Made by a program: the position numbers and the translations under genes
Part shown: in pieces, positions 1-22,329 of the stretch
Layout: each line of letters starts with the position of its first letter
Position numbering within the stretch: the stretch's first letter is position 1
The notes under the pieces: generated by a model
What the model was told of the DNA's origin: nothing
The model's input: only the letters and a program-made list of their open reading frames with translations
The model's database searches: none
NCBI GenBank assembly: GCA_048941265.1
Contig: JBHLNT010000062.1
Span: forward strand, 1-23,023
DNA from: Promethearchaeota archaeon
GTDB lineage: Archaea > Asgardarchaeota > Lokiarchaeia > Sigyniarchaeales > SOKP01
Reading direction: 5' to 3'
Length of the DNA: 23,023 bases

Positions 1-666
1 AAACAATTAGAAAGTATAGTAGGAGAGGGTAAATTATTAGAATTATATGGTATGACGGAACTTTCCCCTGTTGCGACGATGAATCCTTCTAAAGGGGTAA
101 GAAAACTTGGAACTGTTGGAATGCCTATTCAGAATGTTGATTTAAAAATAGTCGATCCTGAAACCGAAAAAGCAGTTCCTTTGGGAGAAGCGGGAGAAAT
201 TTGGGTAAAAGGTCCTTTGGTTATGCAGGGTTACTATAATAAGCCAGAAGAGACGAAAAAAACTGTAACTCCAGATGGTTATATGAAAACAGGAGATGTG
301 GGTATAATGGATGACGATGGTTATATTCGGATTGTCGATCGTACAAAAGATATGTTAATTGTTGGTGGATTTAAGATTTTTTCAAGTAAAGTTGAAGATA
401 CACTAACTGAACATCCTGCGATCGGGAGCATGGCAATAATAGGTGAACCGAATCCAGATCGTCCGGGTTCCGAAATTGTGAATGCTTACATCCAATTAGA
501 TCCTGATTACCAGTATGATGGAAATGAAGCAGCGTTAAAAGAAAGTATCATAAATTTCGCAAAGGAAAAATGCGCCCCTTATGAGGTCCCCAAAAAGATT
601 CATATTATCAAAGAACTGCCGTTAACTGCCGTTGGAAAAGTTGATAAGAAGCTTTTACGAAAATAA
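1..666 (+). CDS. Long-chain acyl-CoA synthetase / AMP-binding ligase, 5'-partial (runs off window start)
   Basis: Frame 1 is open from base 1 (KQLESIVGEGKLLELYGMTE...). It carries the adenylation motifs YGMTE, TGD, IVDRTKD and C-terminal LPLTAVGK, and is collinear and highly similar to the C-terminal third of the next gene. Confidence 0.93.
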   Translation, partial: KQLESIVGEGKLLELYGMTELSPVATMNPSKGVRKLGTVGMPIQNVDLKIVDPETEKAVPLGEAGEIWVKGPLVMQGYYNKPEETKKTVTPDGYMKTGDVGIMDDDGYIRIVDRTKDMLIVGGFKIFSSKVEDTLTEHPAIGSMAIIGEPNPDRPGSEIVNAYIQLDPDYQYDGNEAALKESIINFAKEKCAPYEVPKKIHIIKELPLTAVGKVDKKLLRK

Positions 667-719: not shown

Positions 720-944
720 AATTAAAATTTCTAATTTTTTAAATAACCCCTATTAAAAGATAGATTCATTCAATTTAAAATTAGAATTTAACTTATTTTA
801 TCTTTTAAGTAAAAAATATTGACAATAATATAGAAATTGAGTAAAAAGAAATTGGCAATTTAAAATTAAAACTTTATAACTGATTCTATCAAATATTATT
901 ATAATAAGTCTTTGGACTTATCAAAAAAGAAATTAGTGGTAGAA

Positions 945-2752: not shown

Positions 2753-3526
2753 TCACGCATTTATTTTATTTTGCACAATTTCTACGATTTTTGGCAAAGT
2801 ATCACCAATTTTTTCGTGGATTACTACTTCTGCGTCGTGGTCCATATCAGTTTCTTGAATGTTAATAATAGCGAATTTAGCTCCTAAGGATAATGCTTTA
2901 TGAGGATAAAACGCTACGGGATAGACGAATAAGGAACTTCCAAGTACTATAAATAGATCGCAATTTGCAATCATTTCATCTGCTCTCATTAGTGTTTTAG
3001 ATTCTAAAGGTTCTCCGAAAAATATAGCGTTTGGTTTTAATAAACCAAAACATATCCCGCAAGAGGGGGTAGTAGCTCCTTTCATCACCTGATTTATCAT
3101 TTCCGTTATCGGAAAAACTCGCTTACATCTCATGCACTTTGCCTCATTCACGGTGCCATGTAACTCAATAATATTTTGAGTACGTGCTTTTTGGTGGAGT
3201 CCATCGATATTTTGGGTAAGAACTCCTACCAATTTTCCCATTTTTTGGAGCTTAGTTAAAGCTTTATGGCCTTTATTCGGTTTAGCCCTAAAAATCTTTG
3301 TTCCTAGTTCAAGCATCATTTTCAAATTTCTTCCAGGATTTGCGACATAAGAATGGATGGTGGCATATTTTTCAGGATCTACTTGAGTCCATAAGCCGGT
3401 ATCCGGGCTCCTAAAGTCTGGTATGCCCGATTCGGTGCTCATACCTGCTCCTGTTAAAACAACGATATTTTTAGAATCAATAATAAGTTGGGCAAATTTT
3501 TCAATTTTATTATCGAGGGAACTCAT
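2753..3526 (-). CDS. cobB: NAD-dependent protein deacylase, Sir2/CobB family
   Basis: GAGMSTESGIPDFR, TQNIDGLH, catalytic ELHG, Zn ligands CMRC...CGIC, FFGE and GSSL motifs. The ATG at 3526 (MSSLDNK) is preferred over the ORF-track start at 3547. Confidence 0.93.
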   Translation of the reverse strand: MSSLDNKIEKFAQLIIDSKNIVVLTGAGMSTESGIPDFRSPDTGLWTQVDPEKYATIHSYVANPGRNLKMMLELGTKIFRAKPNKGHKALTKLQKMGKLVGVLTQNIDGLHQKARTQNIIELHGTVNEAKCMRCKRVFPITEMINQVMKGATTPSCGICFGLLKPNAIFFGEPLESKTLMRADEMIANCDLFIVLGSSLFVYPVAFYPHKALSLGAKFAIINIQETDMDHDAEVVIHEKIGDTLPKIVEIVQNKINA

Positions 3527-3631
3527 AAATACAACCAATAATTGCAAAAATATAAAATAAAAAAATATTATTTATTGGTTATAATAATATATTATAATTT
3601 AAATTTGAGCATAATTTTATAACTGATAACA

Positions 3632-4177
3632 ATGTCTGCCTCAAAAAGTTTCATTTACAAGATATGCGTGGTAGGTGATGGTGGAGTTGGGAAAACCTCC
3701 ATGGTGTTAAGATATACTGAGAATTCATTTAAGGAAAATTATATAATGACAATCGGGAGTAATTTCTCAACCAAAGCAGTCGATTTACCTGAATATCCTC
3801 AATATAATATCAAGCTCCAAATTTGGGATTTAGCAGGTCAAAAACATTTCTCCTTCGTTCGTCCACCCTTTTATAGGGGTGCTACAGGTATAATTTATGT
3901 CTTTGATTTAACTCGAAGAAGTTCATTTTCTAATCTACCAAATTGGAAAACTGAAGTGGAAAAGGTCGTAGCGGGAAGACCTAGCATTTTAGTAGGAAAC
4001 AAGCTAGATTTAGCTGAAGAGGGAAATCGAGAGGTAGCATTACAAGATGGTGAATCTTTAAAAAGCGAAATAGAAGCACTCTCATATTATGAAACAAGTG
4101 CTAAAGATGGGCTTAAAGTAGATGATGTCTTTAAAGAAACCGTTTTAGCAATATTGAAAGCTTCAAACAAAATCTAA
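3632..4177 (+). CDS. Small GTPase, Ras superfamily, Rab-like
   Basis: G1 GDGGVGKT, G2 TIGSNF, G3 WDLAGQ, Rab-like FYRGA, G4 NKLD and G5 ETSAK. There is no C-terminal Cys tail. Confidence 0.93.
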   Translation: MSASKSFIYKICVVGDGGVGKTSMVLRYTENSFKENYIMTIGSNFSTKAVDLPEYPQYNIKLQIWDLAGQKHFSFVRPPFYRGATGIIYVFDLTRRSSFSNLPNWKTEVEKVVAGRPSILVGNKLDLAEEGNREVALQDGESLKSEIEALSYYETSAKDGLKVDDVFKETVLAILKASNKI

Positions 4178-4294: not shown

Positions 4295-5014
4295 ATGTTC
4301 GGTGGAGGTCAAATTAAATATGATCGAGCCCTTACAGTTTTTAGTCCAGAAGGGCGTTTGTATCAAGTGGAATATGCTTTAGAAGCTGTTAGACGTGGTA
4401 CTTTAGCCGTTGCCATTAAATCTGATGAAGATGTATGTTTAGCAGCTCAAATAAAAATACCCTCAAAATTAATGGATCCCGATTCAATTGATAAAATATT
4501 TCAAGTTGATGATCACATAGGAGTAGCAATTTCAGGATTACATGCAGATTCAAGAGTATTAATTAATTATGCCCGAGTTCAAGCTCAGTCTTTTCGGTTA
4601 ACCTATGATGAGCCAGTTAGATTAACTATGCTAGTAAAATCCATTGCAGATTTAAAGCAAATATATACTCAATATGGAGGTATTAGACCTTTTGGATGTT
4701 CGTTGTTCTTTATTGCTATTGATAGTGCAGGCACCCAAATTTATACTACATCTCCAAGTGGAATTTATCGACCTTATAAGGCTTATGCATTAGGAAGTGG
4801 AGAAGCCCAAGCAAGAGAATTTATTCAAAATAATTATAAGGATGGTATGAGTTTTAATGATATTATAAATTTAGCTTTAAACGCTCTTAAAGAATCTATT
4901 GATGAAGAATTAAGTAAAGATAATATTAGGATTGCATATATTAAATCTGAAGACAAAAAGTTTAATTTATGTTCAAAAAACGAAGTTGAGAAATACATAT
5001 CCGAATTAAAATAA
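4295..5014 (+). CDS. psmA: 20S proteasome alpha subunit
   Basis: Alpha signature YDRALTVFSPEGRLYQVEYA, KIFQVDDHIG, YTQYGGIRPFG, and no N-terminal catalytic Thr. Confidence 0.95.
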   Translation: MFGGGQIKYDRALTVFSPEGRLYQVEYALEAVRRGTLAVAIKSDEDVCLAAQIKIPSKLMDPDSIDKIFQVDDHIGVAISGLHADSRVLINYARVQAQSFRLTYDEPVRLTMLVKSIADLKQIYTQYGGIRPFGCSLFFIAIDSAGTQIYTTSPSGIYRPYKAYALGSGEAQAREFIQNNYKDGMSFNDIINLALNALKESIDEELSKDNIRIAYIKSEDKKFNLCSKNEVEKYISELK

Positions 5015-7834: not shown

Positions 7835-10800
7835 ATGGACGAGAACAATCAGAAAGAAGAATCTGACATAAAAAAACTCAAGAAAGTTGAGGACAAATAC
7901 AAAAAACAATTTGAAGATGAGAAATTTCAGGAACAAATAGATGAGCAGGTTACAGAAGCGGATAAGTTAATTAGAGAATATGAGTTGGAAATTAAAAAAG
8001 GAAATTTTGAGAGTATTCCTCCTTATCAAAATGTAATAGAAATCTATACTAATATTAAAGAGCAGTTACTTGAGAAAGGATGGAATAAGCACGTGAATGT
8101 ATATTTAAATCAAATCAAAATCTTAAAGCAAAAACAAGAACAAGATAATAAATTGCGCAATATTGAGGCTAAGAAAAGAGAAAAAGAGAAAGAATATCAA
8201 GAATCTTTGAAACTTAGAAAAGAGAGAAAAATAGATGAGGGGAAAATGAAAGCGGCAGAAAAAAAAATATTGAGAGATTTGGAAGTTGAAAAATTTCAAG
8301 ATCAAATAACTGAAAGGGTTAACGAAGCAGAACATATGATTAGAGAATATGAAATTAAAATTAAGAAAGGAGATTTCAGTCAAGAACCACCTTATCGAGA
8401 TGTAATAGAGATTTATAGAGATATTAGAAAAGATTTATTAGAACACGATTGGATTGAGCAGGCTAATATATATCTAAATCAGATTAAATTGCTTCAAGAG
8501 AAAATAAAACAGGATGAGAAATTACGGAAAATCGAAGCTCAAAAAAAGCAAAAAAAGGTGGCATATTTAGAATCAATGAAATTGGGTGTACGTAAAAAAT
8601 CTGAGTATAAAAGATTGAGAGCTGCTGATGATAAAATAAAAAGAGAGTTAGAAGATGAAATTTTTCAGAGTCAAATAGATGATCAAGTATCTGAAGCAGA
8701 GAAGTTAATTAGAAATTATGAGATTGAGATTAAGAAAGGAGATTTCAATCAAGAACCACCTTATCGAGATGTAATAGAGATTTATAGTAATATTAGAAAA
8801 GAACTATTAGAACGTAATTGGTATGATCAGGCAAAAATTTATTTGAATCAAATTGAGTTACTTAAAGAAAAAATTGATAAAGATAAAATATTGAGAGAAA
8901 TAGAAGCTCGAAAGACCGAAAAAGAAATAGCTCATTTAGAAGCTATGAAATTAGGAGAGCGTAGGAGATCTGAATATAAGAAGATATTAAGTGCCCAAGA
9001 AAGAATTAAGAAAGAAGCCGAAGAAGAGGATTTTCAAAAACAAATTGATGAAAGAGTTACTAAAGCAGAAAAATTAATTCGAAATTATGATGCGGAAATT
9101 AAAAAAGGCAATTTTAATACAGAACCCCCCCACCAACAGGTAATTGATATTTATAATGATATTAGGAAAGAATTGTTAGAAAAAGGTTGGAAGGAGGAAG
9201 CTACGATTTATACAAATCAAATTAAATTAACTAAAGAAAAACTAGAAAAAGATAAGCTATTACGTGAAATTGAGGGCCAAAAGCAAAAAAAACAATTGGA
9301 ATTTGAAGAACTCATCAAATCAAAAGCAGAAGATAGGATGTTACAAACAGATATAGTATCTTTAAAGGGAGTTGAGGAGAGACACCGCAAAGATTTTGAA
9401 GATGAAATATTTCAAAAGAAGATTACCGAAATGGTTAATAGAGCGGAAGAATTAGCAAGAAAATATGAATTTGCCATTAGACAAGGGAAGTTTGAGGAAA
9501 AATGTCCTTATCAAGATGTAATAGATATCTATACCGAAATTAAAAACGAATTGATTGAACAAGGTTGGACAGATCAAGCTATAATTTATACTAAACAAAT
9601 TAATATTTACTTAGAGAAATTAGAAAAAGATAAGAAATTAAGGGAAATAGAAGCTCAAAAAGCTGAAAAACAAAAGGAGTTTGAAGCCACTTTTAAATCC
9701 AAGAAAGAGATAAAAGAAATAACCAAAGATAAGGAAAAACTTAAAATTGTAGAAGAGCAGTATCAAAAAGAACTTGAAGAAGAAAAATTCCAGAAAATGA
9801 TCACAAGTATGGTCAATAAAGCTGAAGAAATAGCAAGAAAATATGAATTTGCCATTAGACAAGGGAAGTTTGAGGAAAAATGTCCTTATCAAGATGTAAT
9901 AGATATCTATTCTGATGTTAAGAATAAATTAGTTGAAAGGGGTTGGTCTGAACAGGCTTTAATTTATACTAAGCAGATTAACCTTTATTTAGGGAAACTC
10001 GAAAAAGATAAGAAATTAAGGGAGATTGAAGCTCAAAAAGCTCAAAAACAAAAAATATATCAGGATTCTATTAAAGTTAAAGAAAAAGAGAGATATCTTA
10101 AATCAGATTTGGAAAAATTAAGATTAGCAGAAGAACTATATCAAAAAGAGCTAGAAGATGCTAATTTTGAAAACGAAATTGCTAAATTGGTCAACCGAGC
10201 GGAAGAATTGGCAAGAAAATATGAATTTGCTATTCGACAAGGTAAATTTGAAGAAAAATGTCCCTATCAAGAAATAATTGATATTTATACAAAAGCAAAA
10301 AATAACCTAATTGATAGAGGTTGGACTGAACAAGCAAACATTTACATAAAACAAGTTAATTATTATTTAGGTAAATTAGATAATGATTTGAGACTTCGGG
10401 AGATTGAAGCTCAAAAAGCCCAAAAACAAAAAGAATTTGAAGAACTTACAAAGATTAAGAAAGAAGATAAGCAATTAGAGGAAGATATAGAAAAATTAAG
10501 AACGGTTGAGGAACAATATCAAAGAGAATTTGAAGAAGAAGATTTTGAATACGAAATTTCTAAAATGGTGGATGAAGCAGATGCAATGGCAAGAAAGTAT
10601 GAACTTGCACTTCGAAGGGGTAAATTTGAAGAATCTTGTCCTTATCCTGTGATAATAGAAGTCTATGAACAAGTAAAAAAAAGACTCTTGGAAAGAGGAT
10701 GGAATGATGAAGCAGCTATCTATAGAAAGCAAGTTCAATTATATCAAGATAAATTCGAACAAGATAAAAAATTAAGGGAGATTGAAGGATTAAAACTACA

Positions 10801-13534
10801 AAAACAAAGAGATTTTGAGGAGCAATTCTTAATTAGACCTGAACAAGAATTAGAGAGTGCGGCAAAAAGATTAAAAGCTGTAGAAGAGGAATATGAAACC
10901 AGAATCGAAGAAGAGAAATTTCAAAGAGAGTTAAGTTCGAAAGTAGATCAAGCCGAAGAAATGGCGCGAAAATATGAATTTGCTATTCGACAAGGTAAAT
11001 TTGAAGAAAAATGTCCTTATCCAAGAATTATCGATATTTATACAAATATTCATCAAAAACTTAAGGAAAAAGGTTGGATTGATCAGGCTTTTATATTTAA
11101 TAGCCAAATTCAGTTATATCAAGAGAAATTAGAGAAAGATAAAAAGTTAAGAGAATTTGAGGCACAAAAAGAAACTAGAAGCAGAGAAATGATGGAATTA
11201 TTAAAAACTAAGGATTTTAAAACTATTGATGAAGAGAAACTCCGAAAAATTGAAAGTAGAAAGAGAGAAAAGAAGAAGTTATTAGATGAAGGTTTTTCTC
11301 TTATTGATAGAGCAGAAAAATTGGTAAAAGAGTACGAATTAAGGTTAAAGTTGGAAAAAGAAATCTTACTTTATGAGAGTCCTTATGAAGAAGCTATAAA
11401 ATTATATAGACAAGCAAGGCAAATATTTCAAGATAATAACTGGGATAATGAAGCGAATAGTCTAATTAATACAATTAATTTTTATAAAGATAAACAAGAA
11501 AAAGACGATAAACTACGGGAGATTGAAAAAAGTAAAGCAATAAGAAAAGATATTGAGATTGGCATTGGTAGACCAACGGCAAAACGAGCTCAGATAGAGA
11601 GAAAAAAGAAGGTTTTAGCTTTGGAAGAACAAAAAAGACAACAAGAACAATTGTCAAATGAAGCGTTTGGGATTATTGATGAGGCAGAAAGCATGGCAAA
11701 AAGATATGAGTTAGAGTTAAAAGAAGGTAATTTCCCTGAACCACCATTTGAAGAAGTTATAAAAATGTATCGCAATGCTCGAAGCATTTTTGAAGATATT
11801 GGATGGGAGGACCAGGCAGCAGAGCTTGTAAATACTATAAACTATTACAAAGAGAAGATGTTGGCGGATAATAAATTAAGGGCCTTAGAAACCGAAAAAA
11901 TAGAAAAACATAAAAAAGAATTGGAGGAACAACAACGAATTCTCAAAAAGCAAAGAGCAAAGGAGAGAGAACAATTAAAACTAAGGGAGGAAAAACTGCT
12001 CACAAAACGCAATCAAGAAACAGAGTTGGAGTCTAAGAAATTTAAGGCATTTAGTCTCATGGATCAAGCAAAAAGACAATTAGATCAGGATAATTTCGAC
12101 TCTGCAATTGAATTATATGAACAAAGTCAGAAAATAATCTCTGAGATCAATTGGACAGAAGGTCTTAAAATGGTTCAAGAATCGATAATTGTAATAAAAA
12201 AGAAAAAACAGGAATTTGAAATTAGAGAAAAGGCTCTTAAAGAAGAAGAAGTAGAAAAATTGCGTTTAGAGAGAGAGCTAGAACAAGAAATAACTAAAAC
12301 TAAGGAGTTAGAAAGACTTCAGCAGGAGCTTAAAAGAGAGGAAATGTTAAAGATTCAAAAACAGAAAGAAAAAGAAAGTATTGCTTCTGAAAGAGCCTAT
12401 ATTCTACTTGAGAAAGGAACCAAACTCTTAGAAAAAAAAAGTTTTAAGGAAGCTTATGAAGCATACGTAGCAGCCTTAGATATTTTTAAAGAGCTTGATT
12501 GGTTTCATGAAGTAAATCGAATTAACAACGAATTGTTATTAAACCTTCAGCTCGAGGAGACAAAGGAAAAGCGATTTGAAGAATATAAGAAGAAAAAAAT
12601 GCAAGAGAAGCAAGAGCTAGAGAATATGCTAAAAGTTGCAGAACAACAAAGGAAGGAGCTTGAAACTGCTAAAATAAAAGAAAAGCGTGAGAGATTAAGA
12701 AAATTACAAGTTTCTGATACACTTAAAGACAAAATAGAAGAAAACTTAGAACGGGCAAACATTGAAATACAAAATGGGAACTACAATAAAGGAGTTTTAA
12801 AACTGAAAGAAATCATTAAAATGATGGAGAGAGTCGGTTGGGATAAAGAGATCGCAGATATTAATAATCAAATCCATGTATTAAAAAATAAAAGCCATGT
12901 TCCACTTATTACATTAGAAGAAGTTGATAGTGGAGAAAATATAAAAAAATTTAAAGCCGCTTATGATGCATTAGATAAAGCTCATGTTTCTCTTCTTAAA
13001 AACCGAATAATGAAAGGAATATCTGAGTTAAATGAATCCATATTTAATCTTAAAGAAACGAAAATTGGGACAAAATTTATTGATCAAATTGAGATGAAAA
13101 TTAAGGAGCTTAGAGATTCAATCGATAAGAAAAGAAAATTGAAGGATATTTCCGATATTGAGGGGATTGAAATAGAAGAGGGGAAACCTGTAGAGTTATC
13201 ATCAGAACTTGCTTATGAATATATGGATAAATGTAAAAAAGAGGAACGACGCAACAACTTTAAAAAGGCTATTGATTTAGCTACAACAGCAAAAGAGATC
13301 TTCGTAAAACTTGGATCTGAATGGTCTCGTGAAATAATGTCGATAACAAGATATATTAGCATATTAGAAAACAAACAAGTCGCACGAGAGGAATCATTTA
13401 AACATAAAAAAGAAGAATTAGAAGAAAAGGAGAGATCATTGAAAGAAGAGGAAGAAGAATTTAAAGAGAGAATTAAAGCTCGTAGGGAAGCAAGAAAGAA
13501 GAGAATACAGAATTTAATGAAAAAAAATAAATGA
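7835..13534 (+). CDS. Giant helical tandem-repeat protein (11 long units, then about 5 short TPR/MIT-like bundles joined by charged helices)
   Basis: Uninterrupted 1899-aa ORF with consensus FQxxIxxxVxxAExxxRxYExxIxxGxFxxx[PC]PYxxVIxIYxxIxxxLxxxGWxxQAxIYxxQIxxxxxKxxxDxxLRxIEAxK. No hydrophobic TM segment or signal peptide is evident. Confidence 0.9.
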   Translation: MDENNQKEESDIKKLKKVEDKYKKQFEDEKFQEQIDEQVTEADKLIREYELEIKKGNFESIPPYQNVIEIYTNIKEQLLEKGWNKHVNVYLNQIKILKQKQEQDNKLRNIEAKKREKEKEYQESLKLRKERKIDEGKMKAAEKKILRDLEVEKFQDQITERVNEAEHMIREYEIKIKKGDFSQEPPYRDVIEIYRDIRKDLLEHDWIEQANIYLNQIKLLQEKIKQDEKLRKIEAQKKQKKVAYLESMKLGVRKKSEYKRLRAADDKIKRELEDEIFQSQIDDQVSEAEKLIRNYEIEIKKGDFNQEPPYRDVIEIYSNIRKELLERNWYDQAKIYLNQIELLKEKIDKDKILREIEARKTEKEIAHLEAMKLGERRRSEYKKILSAQERIKKEAEEEDFQKQIDERVTKAEKLIRNYDAEIKKGNFNTEPPHQQVIDIYNDIRKELLEKGWKEEATIYTNQIKLTKEKLEKDKLLREIEGQKQKKQLEFEELIKSKAEDRMLQTDIVSLKGVEERHRKDFEDEIFQKKITEMVNRAEELARKYEFAIRQGKFEEKCPYQDVIDIYTEIKNELIEQGWTDQAIIYTKQINIYLEKLEKDKKLREIEAQKAEKQKEFEATFKSKKEIKEITKDKEKLKIVEEQYQKELEEEKFQKMITSMVNKAEEIARKYEFAIRQGKFEEKCPYQDVIDIYSDVKNKLVERGWSEQALIYTKQINLYLGKLEKDKKLREIEAQKAQKQKIYQDSIKVKEKERYLKSDLEKLRLAEELYQKELEDANFENEIAKLVNRAEELARKYEFAIRQGKFEEKCPYQEIIDIYTKAKNNLIDRGWTEQANIYIKQVNYYLGKLDNDLRLREIEAQKAQKQKEFEELTKIKKEDKQLEEDIEKLRTVEEQYQREFEEEDFEYEISKMVDEADAMARKYELALRRGKFEESCPYPVIIEVYEQVKKRLLERGWNDEAAIYRKQVQLYQDKFEQDKKLREIEGLKLQKQRDFEEQFLIRPEQELESAAKRLKAVEEEYETRIEEEKFQRELSSKVDQAEEMARKYEFAIRQGKFEEKCPYPRIIDIYTNIHQKLKEKGWIDQAFIFNSQIQLYQEKLEKDKKLREFEAQKETRSREMMELLKTKDFKTIDEEKLRKIESRKREKKKLLDEGFSLIDRAEKLVKEYELRLKLEKEILLYESPYEEAIKLYRQARQIFQDNNWDNEANSLINTINFYKDKQEKDDKLREIEKSKAIRKDIEIGIGRPTAKRAQIERKKKVLALEEQKRQQEQLSNEAFGIIDEAESMAKRYELELKEGNFPEPPFEEVIKMYRNARSIFEDIGWEDQAAELVNTINYYKEKMLADNKLRALETEKIEKHKKELEEQQRILKKQRAKEREQLKLREEKLLTKRNQETELESKKFKAFSLMDQAKRQLDQDNFDSAIELYEQSQKIISEINWTEGLKMVQESIIVIKKKKQEFEIREKALKEEEVEKLRLERELEQEITKTKELERLQQELKREEMLKIQKQKEKESIASERAYILLEKGTKLLEKKSFKEAYEAYVAALDIFKELDWFHEVNRINNELLLNLQLEETKEKRFEEYKKKKMQEKQELENMLKVAEQQRKELETAKIKEKRERLRKLQVSDTLKDKIEENLERANIEIQNGNYNKGVLKLKEIIKMMERVGWDKEIADINNQIHVLKNKSHVPLITLEEVDSGENIKKFKAAYDALDKAHVSLLKNRIMKGISELNESIFNLKETKIGTKFIDQIEMKIKELRDSIDKKRKLKDISDIEGIEIEEGKPVELSSELAYEYMDKCKKEERRNNFKKAIDLATTAKEIFVKLGSEWSREIMSITRYISILENKQVAREESFKHKKEELEEKERSLKEEEEEFKERIKARREARKKRIQNLMKKNK
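7910..11900 (+). repeat. Intragenic tandem repeat, 11 units of 363-378 nt
   Basis: Conserved Trp codons at 8081, 8450, 8819, 9188, 9566, 9944, 10322, 10700, 11075, 11441 and 11804. Spacings are 369 x3, 378 x4, 375, 366 and 363 nt. The outer boundaries are approximate. Confidence 0.92.
9453..9910 (+). repeat. Exact 80-bp direct repeat (9453-9532 and 9831-9910)
   Basis: TAGCAAGAAAATATGAATTTGCCATTAGACAAGGGAAGTTTGAGGAAAAATGTCCTTATCAAGATGTAATAGATATCTAT occurs twice, 378 nt apart. Confidence 0.9.
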
Positions 13535-15052: not shown

Positions 15053-15520
15053 TTGATTAAAGTAGAAATTGCCTCTCCAGATGAAATTGATGCGTTAAGA
15101 GAATTCACTAAACACTTAGTTGAGGGGCTCGGACAAAAATTTGATCCAAAACGTTTTGATTGGGGAATTCAAAGAAGATTATATGATCCCTTGCAAAGAC
15201 ATGGGATTTTAATAGCAGTTAATGAAGATAATAATGAAATTGCAGGTATGATCATCGCAGAACTTAGAATTGATCCTTTTGGAATGTCAGAAGGATATAT
15301 TAAACAATTTTACCTAAAAAGTGAATATCGGGGTCAGGGAGTTGGAGAACTTCTCCTAAAAAAAGCACTTGAACATTTGAAAAGAATAAAAGTTGAAAAG
15401 ATAAAAGTTAATATTAAAGATAAAGCATTAGAAGCCTCTAATCTTTACGAAAAGATGAGATTTAAAAAAGTCTATGAAGTTCTTGAATTAGACCTTACTG
15501 AAGATAATCCTTTAGATTAG
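15053..15520 (+). CDS. GNAT-family N-acetyltransferase
   Basis: Acetyl-CoA motif A (FYLKSEYRGQGVGELLL) and motif B (ASNLYEKMRF). The start codon (TTG) is uncertain. Confidence 0.88.
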   Translation: MIKVEIASPDEIDALREFTKHLVEGLGQKFDPKRFDWGIQRRLYDPLQRHGILIAVNEDNNEIAGMIIAELRIDPFGMSEGYIKQFYLKSEYRGQGVGELLLKKALEHLKRIKVEKIKVNIKDKALEASNLYEKMRFKKVYEVLELDLTEDNPLD

Positions 15521-15540: not shown

Positions 15541-16521
15541 ATGACTCTCGACTTAGATGTTCCTTGGGTTGAAAAATATCGACCTAAGGATTTTGAGGAT
15601 ATTGTTAGTCAAAGTATTACTATAAATAATTTAAAAGAATTTGTTAAAAGTGGCAATATGCCCCATATGATCTTTACAGGTCCTGCTGGCACTGGGAAAA
15701 CAAGTGCAGCTCTAATTATCGCAAAAAAATTGTTAAAAGGAGATCACTATTATAGGGATTTATTAGAACTTAACGCTTCTGATACAGTTAGAATGGATTA
15801 TGTAAGGAGCGTTATCAAGAATTTTGTTAATCAAAATATGATAATTGGAGCAAAATCTCTGAAAATCGTGATATTAGATGAAGCAGATAATATCCCAAAT
15901 CAAGTCCAACAAGCTTTAAGGAGAATCATTGAGAAAACATCAAATCAAGTAAAGTTTATCTTAATGTGTAATTATATTAATCGCATTATAGATCCTATTA
16001 TTTCTAGATGTGCTGTTTTTAGGTTTGTGAGTCTGCCAAAAGAAATAATTATCGATAGGCTAAAATATATTACTCAGCAAGAAAAATTGAAGATACCAGA
16101 AAAATTTTCCGATGATTTTTTTGAAACACTCTTTTTTATATCGGGTGGTGATTTAAGAAAAGCAATTAACACTCTCCAAAGCGCGGTGGCACTTGAATTA
16201 TTAGAAAATCTAGATATTAATGAAATTCTAAAAATTTCTGGATTCTTAGATAAGCCAACATTGGAGCATTTAACTAGAGCTATTTCAGCCATAGATTTTA
16301 TTCGTACAAAAGAAATCTTAGCAAATGCGGAGAATCTTGATAGTAGAAATTTTATAAAACAAATCTTAGAAATATTGCCAAAGCTACAAATCGAACAAAA
16401 AGATATAAGTTATCTATACTATTTTTTGGGCGAAGTAGATTATAGAATCAGTCAAGGAGCGGATGAACAAATCCAAATATTCGCTTTAATAGCAGAAATA
16501 ATACATAGGATGAGTAAATAG
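15541..16521 (+). CDS. rfcS: Replication factor C small subunit (ATPase-competent)
   Basis: PWVEKYRP, Walker A GPAGTGKT, ELNASD, Walker B ILDEAD, QALRR, SRC and GDLRKAIN. No intein is present. Confidence 0.95.
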   Translation: MTLDLDVPWVEKYRPKDFEDIVSQSITINNLKEFVKSGNMPHMIFTGPAGTGKTSAALIIAKKLLKGDHYYRDLLELNASDTVRMDYVRSVIKNFVNQNMIIGAKSLKIVILDEADNIPNQVQQALRRIIEKTSNQVKFILMCNYINRIIDPIISRCAVFRFVSLPKEIIIDRLKYITQQEKLKIPEKFSDDFFETLFFISGGDLRKAINTLQSAVALELLENLDINEILKISGFLDKPTLEHLTRAISAIDFIRTKEILANAENLDSRNFIKQILEILPKLQIEQKDISYLYYFLGEVDYRISQGADEQIQIFALIAEIIHRMSK

Positions 16522-16563
16522 TAAAATTTAAAATAATAAATTATACAAAATAGGTGGAAAAGC

Positions 16564-17610
16564 TTGATTGAGACAATTCCGATATGGCGTATAAAATATC
16601 TCCCCAATACCTTAGATGAAATATGTGGAAGACAGGAGATTATAAAAAATTTAAAAGAGATAATTAAAAAGAGGAATTTCCCTCACTTATTACTTGTAGG
16701 TTCTGAAGGTATTGGAAAAGCTACCATTGCGAGATTATTTGCCAAAGAGTTTTTAGGAAGATATTTTACTGCGAATTATAAGTTAATATATGCTGATGAA
16801 CCATTAACAGAAGAAGAAAGAAATTTAGCTAAATCAGAAGCATATATCTCAACAAGCAAAATTGGCAGTATAGCTGGTAAAAGGATTACAACTCCGGCTT
16901 TTATCAAGGTTAAAGTTAAGCCTTTTGTGCAATTAAAGGTATTAGGAGATGCTCCTTTTAAAATTCTGATAGTTAAAAATTTTGAGGTATTGGGGGCAGA
17001 TCAACAAGGTTTTAGACGATTAATGGAAATATATGGGAACAATTGCCGCGTAATCTTAATTACGAAAAAAATTTCAGGGATCATAGATCCTATTATAAGT
17101 AGATGTCAACTATTTTTGATTTCTCAAGTAGATTTTCAATCGTTTAAAGAGTTAATACTTAAGATTTCCCAAAAGGAATCCTTACAAATTGATGAGCATG
17201 TTATAGAAGTCCTTTATAAACTCTCTGAAGGGAAAATATCTCGAGCGATTGATTTATTGCAATTATGTAGTTTAAGTGGAAAAAGCATAGATTTGGAAAA
17301 ATTATTTCAAAATTCCCAGAAATTTCGAATTGATATTGTGAGAAGCCTTTTATTAGTTGCATTAAATGGTGATTTTCCAAAAGCAAGAGAAATAGCAAGG
17401 AAAATTGTATCTAGCTATAAATATAATGCGAATGAATTGTTTAATTTATTGCTTGAAGAATTGATTAAATTACCTTTAAGTAAATTTACTCGGAGTAAAT
17501 TGATTAATTTTATCGCAGATGCGGATTTTCGTTCGTTAGATGGTATAGATAACGATATACAAATTTCGGCACTCTTATCTAAATTCTGTCTATTTTCAGA
17601 AAATTTATAA
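16564..17610 (+). CDS. Second, divergent RFC small subunit (degenerate Walker A/B, intact SRC)
   Basis: WRIKYLP, PHLLLVGSEGIGKAT, ILIVKNFE in place of ILDEAD, QQGFRRLME, IIDPIISRC, and the collar domain IADADFRSLDGIDNDIQISALL. TTG start after AGGTGG. Confidence 0.88.
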   Translation: MIETIPIWRIKYLPNTLDEICGRQEIIKNLKEIIKKRNFPHLLLVGSEGIGKATIARLFAKEFLGRYFTANYKLIYADEPLTEEERNLAKSEAYISTSKIGSIAGKRITTPAFIKVKVKPFVQLKVLGDAPFKILIVKNFEVLGADQQGFRRLMEIYGNNCRVILITKKISGIIDPIISRCQLFLISQVDFQSFKELILKISQKESLQIDEHVIEVLYKLSEGKISRAIDLLQLCSLSGKSIDLEKLFQNSQKFRIDIVRSLLLVALNGDFPKAREIARKIVSSYKYNANELFNLLLEELIKLPLSKFTRSKLINFIADADFRSLDGIDNDIQISALLSKFCLFSENL

Positions 17611-17619
17611 GAATCCAAG

Positions 17620-18999
17620 GTGAGAGAAATAGCTAAAAAACCTATAATTATAAAATCCCAATTGCCATGGGTTGAAAAATACCGCCCAAAAAGCATGAAA
17701 GAGATGGCATTACCTTCCGCTAAAGTTGAAGGACACCGTGTTGATTTAGCAGAAGAATTAACAAATTTTATTAGAACATTTTTCCAAGAAATTAAAATCA
17801 TAAATGAAAAAAATAAAAAAATAAGAGCCTATAATAGAACTGTTTCAGAAAAAGAGCAAAGAGAAGAAGTTAAGCTACAACCTGAAAAAGCAGCAGTTTT
17901 ATTGGAAGGACCTCCGGGTATTGGCAAAACTTCCATAGTGTATGCTCTAGCTCATGATTTAAATATGGATGTAGTGGAAACTAATGCCTCTGATACACGT
18001 ACTAGAGATAGCCTTGAAAAGAAGTTAAAAGAGACAGTTAAATCTCGAGGAATTATCGATTTTATGACTGATTCTAACCAAAAATTAATTTTAATTGATG
18101 AGATTGATGGCCTTTATGGAACAAAAGATCGAGGAGCTGTTCCTACAATTGTGGATTTAATTGAAAATACTCAATTCCCGATAATTATGTGTTCTAATGA
18201 ATACAAGCAAACCCTCCAAAATCTTTATAAAAATATTCGAAGATTTGAAGTCAAACCATTGCCTGAAGATGAGGTTTTTAAAATAGCTCAGAATATTCTC
18301 AAACAAGAAAATATTTCAAGTCTTACTAGAGATGAATTAGAGTTAGTAATAAAAAACAATAAGGGTGATTTAAGAGGAGTTATCAACGATCTTCAAGGTA
18401 TAAGTCAAGGATCAACTAACATTGATACTGGGGAGTTAATTATGAATCTGCATCGAGATAGCACTGAAGAAATTTTTACATTAATTAGAGATTTATTCCA
18501 AAGGGTTAATACTTTAGAAGAAGCTCGAAATTTAACTGATAAATCTGATGTGGATTATAATTTCTTATATAAGTGGGTTAATGAAAATCTTCCAACTTTC
18601 TTAAATATGAATGAAGATATCGCAAATGCCTATGAAAATCTTTCATTAGCAGATGAGATTTTTGGAAGGATCCGAAAAAATCAGTATTGGGCATTATTAC
18701 CTTATTTTTATGACCTTTTCGCAGGGGGAGTTGCCTTATCACGCAAGAGAAGTCCGCCAACAAAAGGTTTTCGTCGAGTTGTTTTTCCACGATATATCAC
18801 ATCAGGTTCATATTCATTAACGAGCCTTGAAAAAAGTATGATAGATAAGATCAACTTGAGATATGAAATATCACAAATAGAAGCAATGCAAGAATTTTTG
18901 CCATTTTTAAAGATATTGTGTACATCTTCACGAAAACAACTTAAAACAGTTAGTGATTGGTTAGAATTGGATGCAAAAGAGAAAAAATTATTAAAATAA
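17620..18999 (+). CDS. rfcL: Replication factor C large subunit
   Basis: PWVEKYRP, GPPGIGKT, ETNASDTR, LIDEIDG, GDLRGVINDLQ, and large-subunit motifs WVNEN and LSLADEIFGRI..QYW.L. There is no SRC motif. Confidence 0.93.
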   Translation: MREIAKKPIIIKSQLPWVEKYRPKSMKEMALPSAKVEGHRVDLAEELTNFIRTFFQEIKIINEKNKKIRAYNRTVSEKEQREEVKLQPEKAAVLLEGPPGIGKTSIVYALAHDLNMDVVETNASDTRTRDSLEKKLKETVKSRGIIDFMTDSNQKLILIDEIDGLYGTKDRGAVPTIVDLIENTQFPIIMCSNEYKQTLQNLYKNIRRFEVKPLPEDEVFKIAQNILKQENISSLTRDELELVIKNNKGDLRGVINDLQGISQGSTNIDTGELIMNLHRDSTEEIFTLIRDLFQRVNTLEEARNLTDKSDVDYNFLYKWVNENLPTFLNMNEDIANAYENLSLADEIFGRIRKNQYWALLPYFYDLFAGGVALSRKRSPPTKGFRRVVFPRYITSGSYSLTSLEKSMIDKINLRYEISQIEAMQEFLPFLKILCTSSRKQLKTVSDWLELDAKEKKLLK

Positions 19000-19430: not shown

Positions 19431-20276
19431 TTATATCGAGTTAAGAAAACTCTGAGAGAGACTAGGAACATCAATATCAAAATAATTTTTAACAATTTCA
19501 ATTAAAAAAGCTAAATACTTATTACTAAGTTTAATCTGATATTCATCTTCTAATTCTTTAGAAATTTTTAATATGTTGATTTTTTCGTCTTTTCTCTGAT
19601 TTTTAATAATATCAACAATAGCTTTTGAAAGAATATATGCTTTCTGAATGTCATTACGCAATAAAATTAAGCTTGATTCCATATCAACTTCGGAAAAAAA
19701 ATTCTGAACAATTTGCTTTTCTACTGCCAGTTTTTTCAAATTTATGGATTTATTGACATTTTTTACAATCTCTTTGCCATTGAATACCATAAAATCTTTA
19801 TATATTTTAGAATTATCCTTATATTGTTCATTAGAGATTATAGAAATATCGATTTCAAACAAATCAAGGGTTATATAGTTAAAGAAATTTAAAATGTGGT
19901 TATAGAGAAATTCCTCTTCAAAAATTAATACTATTTTCTTCTTAAGAAAAATGGATTTTATGACAAGGGTAATTAATATTGCAGGCAGATTAAGCTTAAT
20001 TAAATTCAAATTAATCATTTCAGATTCAGGAATCTTCTCCTCTTCAAGTTTTCCAAAAGGAACTTTCTCTGGAATTTCAATTAGAAAATCGGCTATAAAA
20101 TAATCTCGAATTTTCAGATTTTTATCTATATATGTGACAAATGAGTGCTCACAGATAGTATTCGCTTTTACATAAACTGCTAGAAGACCCCGTGTGATAC
20201 TTTTTAAGGCATTATCCTCTATTTCTATAATTCCAATTTTATGGCAGGAGGGACACCTTATTTGAATTTGTGGCAT
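19431..20276 (-). CDS. Hypothetical protein, N-terminal CPxC...CxH Zn-binding domain, paralog 1 of 3
   Basis: CPSC, RGLLAV, ICEHSFVTYIDKNLKIRDYFIADF. Full-length similarity to the two neighbouring genes. Confidence 0.88.
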   Translation of the reverse strand: MPQIQIRCPSCHKIGIIEIEDNALKSITRGLLAVYVKANTICEHSFVTYIDKNLKIRDYFIADFLIEIPEKVPFGKLEEEKIPESEMINLNLIKLNLPAILITLVIKSIFLKKKIVLIFEEEFLYNHILNFFNYITLDLFEIDISIISNEQYKDNSKIYKDFMVFNGKEIVKNVNKSINLKKLAVEKQIVQNFFSEVDMESSLILLRNDIQKAYILSKAIVDIIKNQRKDEKINILKISKELEDEYQIKLSNKYLAFLIEIVKNYFDIDVPSLSQSFLNSI

Positions 20277-20483: not shown

Positions 20484-21323
20484 TTATAACAAATCCATAA
20501 GACTTTCAGAAGCACTTGGTACTTTGACATTAAAATAATTTCGAACTATATTCAGTAAAAATTCTAAATAATCATTATTTATTTTAGTTTTTTGGTTTTT
20601 CTCCAAATTTTTCCCTAATTTAGAATAATTAAGCTTTTTGATATCATTTATCTTTTGAATTATTTCTACTAGTGAATTTGCAAGTAAGTAGGCCTTATGA
20701 AGTTCATTTTTTAACATAATAAAACTAAAGTTAAGATCAGCTTCATATAAAAAATTTTGCACTATTTTTTTTTCTACTTTTAATTTTTTTGGATTTAAAG
20801 AGTTATTAACATTATTAATTATTTCATTATCCTGAAAAACCATATAATCTTTAAATTCATTACTTTTATTTTTGAATACTTCTTCAGATTCAAAGGATAT
20901 ATTAAATTTAAAATTGTCTTGAGTGATAAGTTTAAAGAATTCTAAGATATGAGGATTCATGAATGATTCTGTTGAAATTAATAGTATTTTTTTTTTCATC
21001 AAAATTGATTTTATCATATAAGTAATTAAATTTGGGGACAAATTTAGCTTAATTAGACTTAAATCCAATTCCCTTGAAATTCCAATATCTTTAATCCTTT
21101 CGGTTTCTGTTATCTCAGGTAACTCATATTGGAAATCAGCGATGAAATAATCTCTTATCTTCAAGTTTTTATCAATATAGGTAATAAACGAATGCGGGCA
21201 AATTGTACCTTCGGGGACATTAACTGCGAGTAAACCTCGTAATATAGTTTTTAAAACATTATCGGAAATTTCTATATTTCCCCTCTTTGAACAATCAGGA
21301 CAAATTACTTGAAGAATTGTCAT
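20484..21323 (-). CDS. Hypothetical protein, N-terminal CPxC...CxH Zn-binding domain, paralog 2 of 3
   Basis: CPDC, RGLLAVN, ICPHSFITYIDKNLKIRDYFIADF. Confidence 0.88.
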   Translation of the reverse strand: MTILQVICPDCSKRGNIEISDNVLKTILRGLLAVNVPEGTICPHSFITYIDKNLKIRDYFIADFQYELPEITETERIKDIGISRELDLSLIKLNLSPNLITYMIKSILMKKKILLISTESFMNPHILEFFKLITQDNFKFNISFESEEVFKNKSNEFKDYMVFQDNEIINNVNNSLNPKKLKVEKKIVQNFLYEADLNFSFIMLKNELHKAYLLANSLVEIIQKINDIKKLNYSKLGKNLEKNQKTKINNDYLEFLLNIVRNYFNVKVPSASESLMDLL

Positions 21324-21477: not shown

Positions 21478-22329
21478 CTATAATAAATCATGGAAACTCT
21501 CGAAGATACTAGGGACTTTAATTTCAAAATAATTTCTGACAATATCTACCAAAAATTCTAAGTATAAATTGTTAATTTTAATTTTATGAGTCTCTTCTAA
21601 GCTTTTATATATTTTTAATATGTTTATTTTTACGTTTTTATCGAGACTATTAATTGCATCAACTATGGATTTTGAAAGGAAATATATCTTGTTTATATCG
21701 TTTCTTAGGACTAATAAACTCGAATTTAAGTCCATTTCGGATAAAAATCGGAGGACCATTTGCTTTTCTATTGCTAATTTCTTTGGATTAATTAATTTTT
21801 TTACATTATTAATTATTTGACTTCCCTCAAAAACCATATAATCTTTATATTGCTTTTTCTCCTGATTAAATTTTTCGTTAGAAATCATAGAAATATCAGC
21901 AGCGAAATTATCCTGTGTTATATATTTGAAAAAGTTAAGAATAATGTTGTTTAAGAAAGTTTCCTCCGAAATTATTAATATTTTCTTTTTTAAAAAAATT
22001 GATTTGAAAATAAAAGTCATTAAATTTGCTGAAACGTTGAGTTTAATCAAATTTAAGTTAACCAAATCTTTTTCTGGAATTATGACATCTTTTTGTTCTC
22101 CAAGAGTATCTAAAACCGGAATTTCGATTTGAAATTGATAATCGGCTATGAAATAGTCTCTTATTACCAAATTTTTATCAATATATACAATAAATGAATG
22201 AGTACAAATAATATCTGATGGAATATTAACAGCAAGTAATCCTCTTTTCACATCTTTCAAATTTTCTTCAGCAACGTCAATATATCCATTTCCTGAGCAA
22301 GACGGACATCGAACTAATATATTTGTCAT
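21478..22329 (-). CDS. Hypothetical protein, N-terminal CPxC...CxH Zn-binding domain, paralog 3 of 3
   Basis: CPSC, RGLLAVN, ICTHSFIVYIDKNLVIRDYFIADY. Confidence 0.88.
   Translation of the reverse strand: MTNILVRCPSCSGNGYIDVAEENLKDVKRGLLAVNIPSDIICTHSFIVYIDKNLVIRDYFIADYQFQIEIPVLDTLGEQKDVIIPEKDLVNLNLIKLNVSANLMTFIFKSIFLKKKILIISEETFLNNIILNFFKYITQDNFAADISMISNEKFNQEKKQYKDYMVFEGSQIINNVKKLINPKKLAIEKQMVLRFLSEMDLNSSLLVLRNDINKIYFLSKSIVDAINSLDKNVKINILKIYKSLEETHKIKINNLYLEFLVDIVRNYFEIKVPSIFESFHDLL

Follow-up and report, generated by a model that had tools for sequence, protein, structure and literature searches.

Organization of the RFC locus

The window, the whole 23,023-nt stretch of Promethearchaeota DNA that was analysed, includes three consecutive RFC genes, which we designate rfcS3, rfcS2, and rfcL (Table 1). 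The open reading frames agree with the original prediction of three adjacent genes, separated by 42 nt (rfcS3–rfcS2) and 9 nt (rfcS2–rfcL).

Table 1. Coordinates of the RFC genes and of the motifs of RfcS2 in the window
Feature	Positions	Strand	Description
rfcS3	15541..16521	+	326 aa; divergent RFC small subunit with intact motifs GPAGTGKTS, LDEADN, CN sensor 1, SRC, and GDLRKAIN
GGTGG	16553..16557	+	6 nt 5' of the rfcS2 TTG start; putative, ribosome-binding-site-like
rfcS2	16564..17610	+	348 aa, TTG start; predicted ATPase-dead small subunit, RfcE-like
Degenerate Walker A of RfcS2, GSEGIGKAT	16699..16725	+	Residues 46–54; Ala53 at the Thr/Ser position
RfcS2-specific insertion region	16792..16902	+	Residues 77–113; conserved PL[TS]xEER and S[KR][IL]GSxAG motifs
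Walker B-equivalent of RfcS2, KILIVKNFE	16960..16986	+	K138-N139 instead of Asp-Glu; FKILIVKNFE is residues 132–141
SRC arginine-finger motif of RfcS2	17098..17106	+	Residues 179–181; SRC in 80/81 copies
rfcL	17620..18999	+	459 aa, GTG start; RFC large subunit, NF003229 match

The genes were compared with NCBIfam profiles at their curated cut-offs (303 bits for NF001679 and 317 bits for NF009067, both equivalogs, and 280 bits for NF003229). RfcS3 matched the RfcS model NF001679 just above its cut-off (308.6 bits), and RfcL matched NF003229 with 304.4 bits. RfcS2 aligned with NF001679 in two stretches and scored 224.2 bits, below the cut-off, and is not a canonical RfcS by this measure. RfcL has intact Walker A and Walker B motifs and a C-terminal extension, bears a lineage-specific insertion around residues 30–88, and lacks SRC. 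The matches of the three RFC genes have E values from 1e-66 to 1e-92, and the S3-S2-L order is repeated in 75 of 80 related loci on contigs of related genomes; therefore, the RFC observation is not due to chance. Among the other 5 loci, 4 are truncated at contig ends and 1 (L087) is without the upstream S3.

An S3-type gene is present in 26 of 30 related genomes. Homologues of RfcS2 numbered 514 at E ≤ 1e-10, with 68–88% identity across Promethearchaeota MAGs, and strong full-length matches among the 201 genomes surveyed were restricted to the order of the window organism (43/45 genomes of family f1 and 3/4 of family f2). Weak S2-like genes (194–224 bits) occur in 6 genomes of two other families of the phylum; the four examined are stand-alone genes with 26–27% identity and a differing insertion.

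A clamp loader with this gene order has been described in Lokiarchaeales by Feng et al. (Nat Ecol Evol 2025, PMC12680538), and our statements on it refer to the accessible part of that report. There, (i) rfcS3, rfcS2, and rfcL form an operon, and rfcS1 is located elsewhere; (ii) RfcS2 is described as lacking Walker B, keeping the arginine finger, and carrying a mid-gene insertion, and RfcL as lacking the arginine finger; (iii) the phylogeny places RfcS2 as RfcE-like and RfcS3 as RfcB/C/D-like, and these two affinities are taken here from that phylogeny only; (iv) all four proteins of Ca. Harpocratesius repetitus, co-expressed in E. coli, were co-purified by tandem pull-down; and (v) RfcS2 occupies the E position in AlphaFold3 models of the orthologous complex. 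The window shares with the Ca. H. repetitus loader the operon order, the Walker B-less RfcS2 with its arginine finger and insertion, the RfcL without SRC, and the Asgard order; RfcS2 of the window is the middle gene of the operon, has lost Walker B and kept SRC, and bears the insertion in the AAA+ region, as Lokiarchaeales RfcS2 does. Thus, the region is very probably the rfcS3-rfcS2-rfcL operon of Lokiarchaeales (Promethearchaeota, Asgard), encoding the eukaryote-like clamp loader of Feng et al. The system is real but already known, having been published in 2025, which bears out the earlier statement that eukaryote-like RFC had been reported in Asgard archaea.

RfcS2 has lost catalytic residues and keeps the arginine finger

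The original prediction for the middle gene, namely GSEGIGKAT, a missing Walker B Asp-Glu pair (KNFE), a retained SRC, and an insertion at the ELNASD region, was seen in full in the translation. Alignment of 81 S2 copies revealed that (i) the Walker A Thr/Ser position is Thr in 73 copies, Ala in 5, and Arg, Lys, or Ser in 1 each; (ii) the Walker B pair is Asp-Glu in none, with KN in 70, KD in 7, NN in 2, KE in 1, and KH in 1; (iii) the sensor 1 Asn is replaced by Lys168 in the window, a position occupied by Lys in 1/81 copies and by Asn in 1/81; and (iv) the sensor 2 Arg is replaced by Ser226, and Arg is found there in 0/81. The two sensor losses had not been listed in the original prediction. 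In alignments A2 and A3, S179 and R180 of the arginine finger are invariant. With Walker B and both sensors lost, RfcS2 presumably cannot hydrolyse ATP. The Walker A alanine noted earlier is present in this copy but is not a trait of the family; the departure from the consensus (GKAT) is a variant inside the family and no ground for exclusion from it. Feng et al. describe a consensus Walker A in all four subunits; unlike the Ca. H. repetitus protein in the accessible description, RfcS2 of the window has the Walker A Ala and the sensor 1 Lys. Because the Walker A Thr/Ser position varies, selection may not be maintaining Mg-ATP binding at the E site.

The insertion comprises about 26 extra residues between a strand (residues 72–76) and a helix (residues 112–123), where canonical RfcS has ELNASDxRGI. 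In the AF2 model of RfcS2 (pLDDT 88.8), it consists of a helix (residues 83–93) and a loop with a pLDDT of 57–58. A search of PDB sequences with this region alone (residues 60–135) returned a single chance match (flavodoxin, E 1.3) and no homology to the eukaryotic E-plug. Unlike the β-hairpin of the E-plug, the insertion is thus modelled as a helix and a low-confidence loop, and it is without a PDB sequence match; Feng et al. likewise report that it lies at the same spot as the E-plug and differs from it in structure.

RfcS2 is conserved like its partners

The loss of four catalytic motifs, together with the variable Walker A position, could suggest that RfcS2 is a decaying RfcS duplicate without a role in the complex. 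Against such decay, the dN/dS ratios of S2 (0.08–0.21) match those of S3 (0.06–0.16), L (0.08–0.13), and S1 (0.10–0.12), although all these ratios are rough because most pairs are at dS > 1. In addition, the insertion is as well conserved as the AAA+ core (mean conservation 0.82 versus 0.84 over 81 S2 copies), SRC is retained in all but one of these copies, and none of the 81 reading frames contains a stop. The conserved operon position, the large number of homologues, and a predicted interface with RfcL that cleared its controls (described below) also argue against decay, the probability of which we consider negligible. Judged from these sequences, RfcS2 is under purifying selection like its partners and is not decaying, so that the earlier suggestion to look for relaxed selection yielded no sign of it.

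RfcS3 and the fourth subunit gene rfcS1

The first gene of the operon was originally read as a canonical rfcS. It is instead of the RfcS3 type: its product is 41.7% identical to the canonical RfcS1 of a genome of the same genus (G001), and the RfcS3 rows form a clade of 13 (SH-aLRT 99) separate from S1. Of the 30 relatives, 27 encode a canonical RfcS1 (374–461 bits on NF001679) at another place, among them 7 of the 9 genomes from the same genus. No rfcS1 was found in the assembly of the window organism (5.01 Mb, 91% complete) by HMM, tblastn, or blastn searches. In G001 and another relative (G009), rfcS1 is flanked by blocks matching the ends of two contigs of this assembly (C260 and C191), and the gene neighbouring the rfcS1 place is truncated at base 8741 of C191. 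The synteny and the relatives suggest that rfcS1 of this organism is present and was lost from the assembly in the gap between C260 and C191; this gap would account for the one further difference from the loader of Ca. H. repetitus as described in the accessible report, the absence of rfcS1 from the assembly.

The original prediction had envisaged three subunit types only, in a pentamer of one RfcL, three small subunits, and one dead small subunit (1L:3S:1S'), which would imply a true loss of rfcS1. Three RFC genes are indeed all that were found in this 91% complete assembly, and a three-gene operon could alone supply a full pentamer. However, true loss of rfcS1 was rejected on the synteny, as the rfcS1 place of G001 and G009 coincides exactly with a break between two contigs here, and on the presence of rfcS1 in the relatives. 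Since the first gene is of the S3 type, the relatives carry rfcS1, and the synteny reveals a gap, the three-subunit composition is not supported; nor is 1L:3S:1S' the expected composition, because the published tandem pull-down yielded all four proteins, and four types occur in the lineage. We therefore regard the three-subunit arrangement as very unlikely. Sediment metagenome runs that contain the operon also contain many short contigs that are 80–90% alike over the rfcS1 region of G001 (for example, X1 records 1–3 over 9010–10040); these contigs, collected at 80% likeness from four runs (X1–X4) of two studies, come from many related archaea, none assignable to this organism. They are a weak hint that a conserved rfcS1 breaks assemblies.

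Predicted RfcL–RfcS2 complex

The model of RfcL with RfcS2 had a score of 0.80, compared with 0.00 for the best of 3 controls, a result that may stem from similarity to RFC complexes already solved. Of 80 solved complexes, 58 attained this score mark, as did 2 of 110 mismatched pairs. The runs shared at least 59% of contacts, with a partner pLDDT of at least 82. In the model, the RfcL collar (residues 318–353) and C-terminal extension (residues 391–447) are predicted to contact the collar, lid, and AAA+ regions of RfcS2, the AAA+ contact residues being 4–13, 53, 57, 74–80, and 138. RfcS2 is thus predicted to sit against RfcL.

Comparison with the eukaryotic E subunit

The eukaryotic E subunit (yeast Rfc5/human RFC3) has no catalytic activity at its own ATP site and keeps the SRC arginine finger. 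RfcS2 of the window resembles this subunit in that (i) it appears catalytically dead yet keeps SRC; (ii) it has an extra AAA+ element; and (iii) its predicted contacts include the C-terminal domain of the large subunit. The original view of a specialised, ATPase-dead small subunit paralleling the eukaryotic E subunit is thus upheld by the motif states, the purifying selection, and the model against RfcL. RfcS2 does not score higher with E chains than with B/C/D chains in sequence or in fold. In phmmer searches against the PDB, it scored 71–93 bits with eukaryotic B/C/D chains and 47–57 bits with E chains, the latter aligning in a single stretch across the insertion region; in Foldseek, there was no E chain among the matches listed (to rank 43); and in VIA-align, the E chains had Z scores of 23.4–24.7 with RMSDs of 9.6–9.7 Å, compared with 24.8–27.5 and 11.2–12.6 Å for B/C/D. 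The E chains are thus not the closest solved relatives of RfcS2 by any of the three programs. Fold comparison does not single out the E chains, the RMSD being the one measure with a lower value for them.

Comparison with euryarchaeal RFCS2 and bacterial delta-prime

The tree included 41 of the best 150 representatives (317–380 aa, already in alignment A2), with no rows known as eukaryotic; the remaining 109 were excluded and consist mostly of fragments and of long forms with inteins. The lowest-scoring of the 150 has 100.9 bits, and solved eukaryotic chains reach at most 93 bits with S2 in the PDB search, so that eukaryotic sequences are probably absent from this set. S2 and S2-like rows form a 28-row clade with an SH-aLRT support of 100.

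This tree bears on whether RfcS2, instead of being an Asgard innovation, could be an orthologue of the euryarchaeal RFCS2 of Methanosarcina and haloarchaea (NF009067) that was inherited or acquired by transfer. NF009067 aligns with RfcS2 over the full length without a break (172.2 bits), and both families contain position-E-type second small subunits in the accessible descriptions. The score is, however, far below the cut-off of NF009067 and places RfcS2 outside that family. Furthermore, the rows that reach or approach this cut-off (P0174, P0185, P0250, and P0251) form, with P0226, a clade of their own among canonical RfcS (SH-aLRT 99), which a branch of support 100 parts from the 28-row S2 clade, and the insertions of the two proteins differ in sequence. 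We consider such orthology highly improbable. The RFC of Methanosarcina acetivorans has an RFCS1:RFCS2:RFCL ratio of 3:1:1 in the accessible accounts of Chia et al. (2010) and a 2014 review in Archaea. On these accounts, the lokiarchaeal loader resembles it in having a specialised second small subunit that takes the terminal place in the chain of small subunits; unlike it, its RfcS2 belongs to a different family and a separate clade, and Lokiarchaeales add a third small-subunit type.

The working mode proposed for RfcS2 has a further parallel in bacteria. Bacterial delta-prime (HolB) is an ATPase-dead AAA+ stator at the pentamer end with an SRC-type arginine finger. RfcS2 would have a similar working mode, and it gives weak matches to delta-prime models (for example, NF004047, E 2.8e-12). 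Delta-prime is, however, bacterial and only a distant homologue, and the archaeal RfcS models give RfcS2 much higher scores.

Proposed arrangement of the lokiarchaeal clamp loader

Diversification of the heteropentameric clamp loader of eukaryotes was long placed only after their origin. The lokiarchaeal operon, in which a dead E-like subunit is already distinct from active subunits of the B/C/D-like kind, represents an intermediate stage; this point was made and biochemically tested by Feng et al. (PMC12680538) and, in the accessible literature, has reached a 2026 review. The window adds detail only: the loss of sensors 1 and 2, the variable Walker A, an insertion constrained like the catalytic core, and purifying selection like that on the partners. 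It also carries a caution that a MAG with seemingly three RFC genes may lack the fourth because of a gap in the assembly.

In the arrangement we propose, RfcL would occupy the A position, the active ATPase RfcS3 and the canonical RfcS1, encoded elsewhere, would occupy the B, C, and D positions, and RfcS2 would sit where the spiral is open, in the E position. RfcS2 would not hydrolyse ATP, the Walker A Thr also being lost in this genus, and its SRC arginine would probably be donated to the ATP site of the adjacent D subunit. RfcS2 would close the collar ring against RfcL, and its conserved insertion probably juts into the DNA-binding chamber, as the eukaryotic E-plug does.

A variant of this arrangement, which we hold to be rather unlikely, is that RfcL, three RfcS3, and one RfcS2 form a self-sufficient eukaryote-style pentamer, matching the originally predicted stoichiometry with S3 in the role of S, and that the separately encoded, better conserved RfcS1 builds or joins a second loader. 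In this genus, the E site, with Ala53 and Lys168, may also no longer bind Mg-nucleotide at all, like delta-prime. The tandem pull-down of Feng et al. indicates, in its accessible description, that S1 can join the others upon co-expression of the four proteins in E. coli, and S1-free complexes in vivo would be compatible with it. If so, one archaeon would have two clamp-loader assemblies with divided labour, foreshadowing the alternative RFC-like complexes of eukaryotes.

The rfcS3–rfcS2–rfcL operon

Three consecutive window genes, with intergenic gaps of 42 and 9 nt, encode clamp-loader subunits, with Pfam AAA, Rep_fac_C, and RFC lid domains among them. Gene 1 has every catalytic motif intact in the alignment and scored 308.6 bits against the NCBIfam RfcS model NF001679 (cut-off 303); gene 2, with GGTGG 6 nt upstream of its start codon, matched this model in two stretches with 224.2 bits, under the cut-off; and gene 3, in which alignment revealed Walker A and B and no SRC, scored 304.4 bits against the RfcL model NF003229 (cut-off 280). 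NF003229 aligned over 447 RfcL residues using 408 model positions. RfcL has, after its WVEKYRP box and ahead of Walker A, an insertion of ~55 residues (approximately residues 30–88); it is kept across the family, and two relatives (L013 and L016) have a version shorter by ~30 residues. A GNAT acetyltransferase gene on the same strand ends 20 nt before rfcS3. One related MAG contig (L087, 3001–5433) carries rfcS2–rfcL without rfcS3 upstream, an unrelated 715-aa opposite-strand gene taking that place; therefore, the operon is not invariant.

Features of the window
Feature	Positions	Strand	Description
AMP-binding enzyme	1–666		
AMP-binding enzyme	912–2666		
Sir2 deacetylase	2753–3547	-	
Small GTPase	3632–4177	+	Ras/Roc family
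Proteasome alpha subunit	4295–5014		
Repeat ORF	7835–13534	+	1899 aa
GNAT acetyltransferase	15053–15520	+	
Gene 1 (rfcS3)	15541–16521	+	326 aa
Gene 2 (rfcS2)	16564–17610	+	348 aa, TTG start
Gene 3 (rfcL)	17620–18999	+	459 aa, GTG start
Tandem paralogues	19431–20276, 20484–21323, 21478–22329	-	279–283 aa

The clamp-loader system is already published and is biochemically supported in an orthologue. According to Feng et al. (Nat Ecol Evol 2025, PMC12680538), Lokiarchaeales encode RfcL, the canonical small subunit RfcS1, and two further paralogues, in the operon order rfcS3–rfcS2–rfcL with rfcS1 elsewhere. They report that (i) RfcS2, with Walker A and an arginine finger present and Walker B absent, is "akin to the eukaryotic RfcE"; (ii) the RfcS2 insertion is located at the E-plug spot; (iii) RfcS3 is related to RfcB/C/D; (iv) RfcL is without an arginine finger; and (v) in AlphaFold3 modelling, RfcS2 and RfcL face each other across the cleft. 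Their account is already repeated in a 2026 EMBO J review, and a euryarchaeal three-subunit RFC (3:1:1) was described earlier (Chia et al. 2010 and a 2014 review). What the window adds to the published system is minor detail.

Motifs and constraint of RfcS2

The motifs were read from an alignment to neighbour genes and solved archaeal RfcS, and all those named in the original prediction are present, including Walker A GSEGIGKAT (residues 46–54), K138-N139-F140-E141 at the place of DEAD, and SRC (residues 179–181). Approximately 26 additional residues lie between strand 72–76 and helix 112–123. Two further losses, absent from the prediction, are the replacement of the sensor 1 Asn by Lys168 and of the sensor 2 Arg by Ser226.

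We surveyed 81 RfcS2 copies (the window and 80 genome_contigs loci). The Walker B pair was KN in 70, KD in 7, NN in 2, and KE and KH in 1 each, never DE, and SRC was found in 80 copies, with SRS in the remaining one. The prediction of a dead small subunit that keeps its arginine finger is borne out, and its proposed eukaryotic parallel matches the RfcE-like RfcS2 reported in PMC12680538. Thr occupied the sensor 1 position in 70 copies and Asn in 1; Arg was at the sensor 2 position in none. The residue after the Walker A Lys was Thr in 73 copies, Ala in 5 (the window's among them), and R, K, or S in 1 each. Together, this variable Thr/Ser position and the loss of sensors 1 and 2 suggest an E site (the position of yeast Rfc5/human RFC3) that is no longer under selection for nucleotide handling.

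Mean column conservation of the insertion (0.82) was close to that of the AAA+ core (0.84); the lid and collar had 0.66 and 0.71, respectively. Between same-genus genomes, with dS above 1 in most pairs, Nei–Gojobori dN/dS was 0.08–0.21 for S2 (7 pairs), 0.06–0.16 for S3 (5 of 7 pairs, the other two being saturated), 0.08–0.13 for L (7 pairs), and 0.10–0.12 for S1 (2 pairs). The least diverged pair (G006–G009, dS 0.13–0.19) gave 0.21, 0.16, 0.13, and 0.10 for S2, S3, L, and S1, respectively. RfcS2 is a constrained protein; relaxed selection, the counter-indication named in the prediction, was not seen, and dN/dS and motif conservation rule out a decaying copy.

In RFC and gamma-complex loaders, each ATP site is completed by an SRC arginine from the subunit that follows, and the last subunit's own site is partnerless, with hydrolysis not needed. 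RfcS2 would be last in the pentamer, at the E position, where it would supply R180 to the ATPase in position D (RfcS3 or RfcS1) and close the collar against RfcL, and its conserved insertion may gate the DNA chamber.

Structural comparison and predicted RfcL–RfcS2 interface

The AlphaFold2 model of RfcS2 (52-row alignment) was confident (pLDDT 88.8, pTM 0.68) and contained, in the insertion, a helix (residues 83–93) followed by a loop of pLDDT 57–58. Foldseek ranked archaeal RfcS first and eukaryotic B/C/D chains next, and E chains were absent among the matches listed (to rank 43). VIA-align gave Z 24.8–27.5 and RMSDs of 11.2–12.6 Å against B/C/D chains, and Z 23.4–24.7 and 9.6–9.7 Å against E chains. 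With phmmer, E chains scored 47–57 bits versus 71–93 bits for B/C/D chains; the alignments of E chains and of yeast Rfc2 ran unbroken through the insertion region. A PDB search with the insertion alone gave no match. These sequence and fold comparisons neither reproduce nor contradict the RfcE affinity, which in PMC12680538 is based on phylogeny and topology tests.

Against three controls, the best of which had 0.00, the two-chain model of RfcL and RfcS2 scored 0.80; 58 of 80 solved complexes attained this mark, as did 2 of 110 mismatched pairs. Contact agreement between runs was at least 59%, and partner pLDDT was at least 82. The predicted interface comprises the collar (residues 318–353) and C-terminal extension (residues 391–447) of RfcL, and the collar, lid (residues 230–237), and AAA+ residues 4–13, 53, 57, 74–80, and 138 of RfcS2. 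This contact is of the A/A'-to-E type reported in PMC12680538. The model places RfcS2 against RfcL, but this pass may only reflect likeness to solved textbook RFC complexes.

Distribution and family tree of RfcS2

Homologues of gene 2 at 68–88% identity all come from Promethearchaeota (Asgard) MAGs. When 201 genomes from the phylum with a completeness of 80% or more were searched with an S2-family profile, 88 gave a match. Strong matches (at least 336 bits) in 47 genomes, full-length except in G019 (model positions 3–232), all fall in the window's taxonomic order (43 of 45 genomes of group f1, 3 of 4 of f2, and the window's own). Six genomes of two other families gave weak full-length matches (194–224 bits), and the four such genes examined are stand-alone and 26–27% identical to S2. 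In the remaining 35 genomes, the profile hit canonical RfcS, and there the C-terminal part alone. The stand-alone genes (L106–L109, in G124, G171, G113, and G107) encode 370–375 aa with a longer and different insertion; P0173 and P0191, representatives clustering with them, carry LRDAD/LDESD where Walker B would be. They may be the wider "RfcS2" mentioned in PMC12680538.

In a midpoint-rooted maximum-likelihood tree (LG+G4, quick search) of 77 archaeal rows, whose representatives are unnamed and none known to be eukaryotic, 13 S2 rows and 15 representatives lie behind a branch of SH-aLRT 100, and S3 (13 rows) and S1 (6 rows) each form one side of an SH-aLRT 99 branch. Four representatives at or near the cut-off of NF009067, the euryarchaeal RFCS2 model (P0174, P0185, P0250, and P0251), form with P0226 (not scanned with that model) a separate SH-aLRT 99 clade among canonical RfcS. 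Scored against NF009067 (cut-off 317), RfcS2 of the window reached 172 bits and is therefore not the Methanosarcina/haloarchaeal RFCS2.

The fourth subunit

The search of 30 related genomes with NF001679 revealed two classes of gene: (i) canonical RfcS1 (374–461 bits), located away from the operon, in 27 genomes; and (ii) in 26 genomes, a second gene immediately upstream of S2 and L, mostly at 257–332 bits, with 190.6 bits for one copy truncated by the end of its contig. Gene 1 of the window falls in the second class and is 41.7% identical to RfcS1 of the same-genus genome G001; it is RfcS3.

RfcS1 was not found in the window's own assembly (5.01 Mb, 361 contigs, 91% complete) by HMM, tblastn, or blastn. 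In G001 and G009, rfcS1 and a neighbour of ~288 aa lie between two gene blocks, one matching contig C260 of the window's assembly to ~233 bases from its end and the other matching contig C191, whose last base, 8741, truncates the flanking gene. Because the blocks match these contig ends, rfcS1 probably falls in an assembly gap, and the fourth gene appears to be missing from the assembly only. Contigs of four operon-bearing sediment runs contain many short pieces 80–90% like the G001 rfcS1 region, not assignable to the window's organism. The prediction of three subunit types is thus not supported, nor is its 1:3:1 composition: Feng et al. (PMC12680538) report co-purification of all four orthologous proteins of Ca. 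Harpocratesius repetitus.

Other genes in the window

The 1899-aa ORF has no Pfam match, is rich in Glu (17%) and Lys (16%), and consists of about a dozen or more repeats of ~100 aa, with the recurring unit ...KYEFAIRQGKFEEKCPYQDVIDIY...GW..QA.IY..Q...KLREIEAQK; this makeup accounts for the strong purine skew there. The product resembles a giant protein of the repeat or coiled-coil kind. The small GTPase (Pfam Ras, E 1.1e-47), of a kind typical of Asgard genomes, lies beside the genes for the Sir2 deacetylase, the proteasome alpha subunit, and the two AMP-binding enzymes. The three tandem paralogues, mutually 52–57% identical and without a Pfam match, begin with a zinc-ribbon-like CxxC...CxH segment at the N terminus; G006 has a relative of 41% identity near rfcS1.
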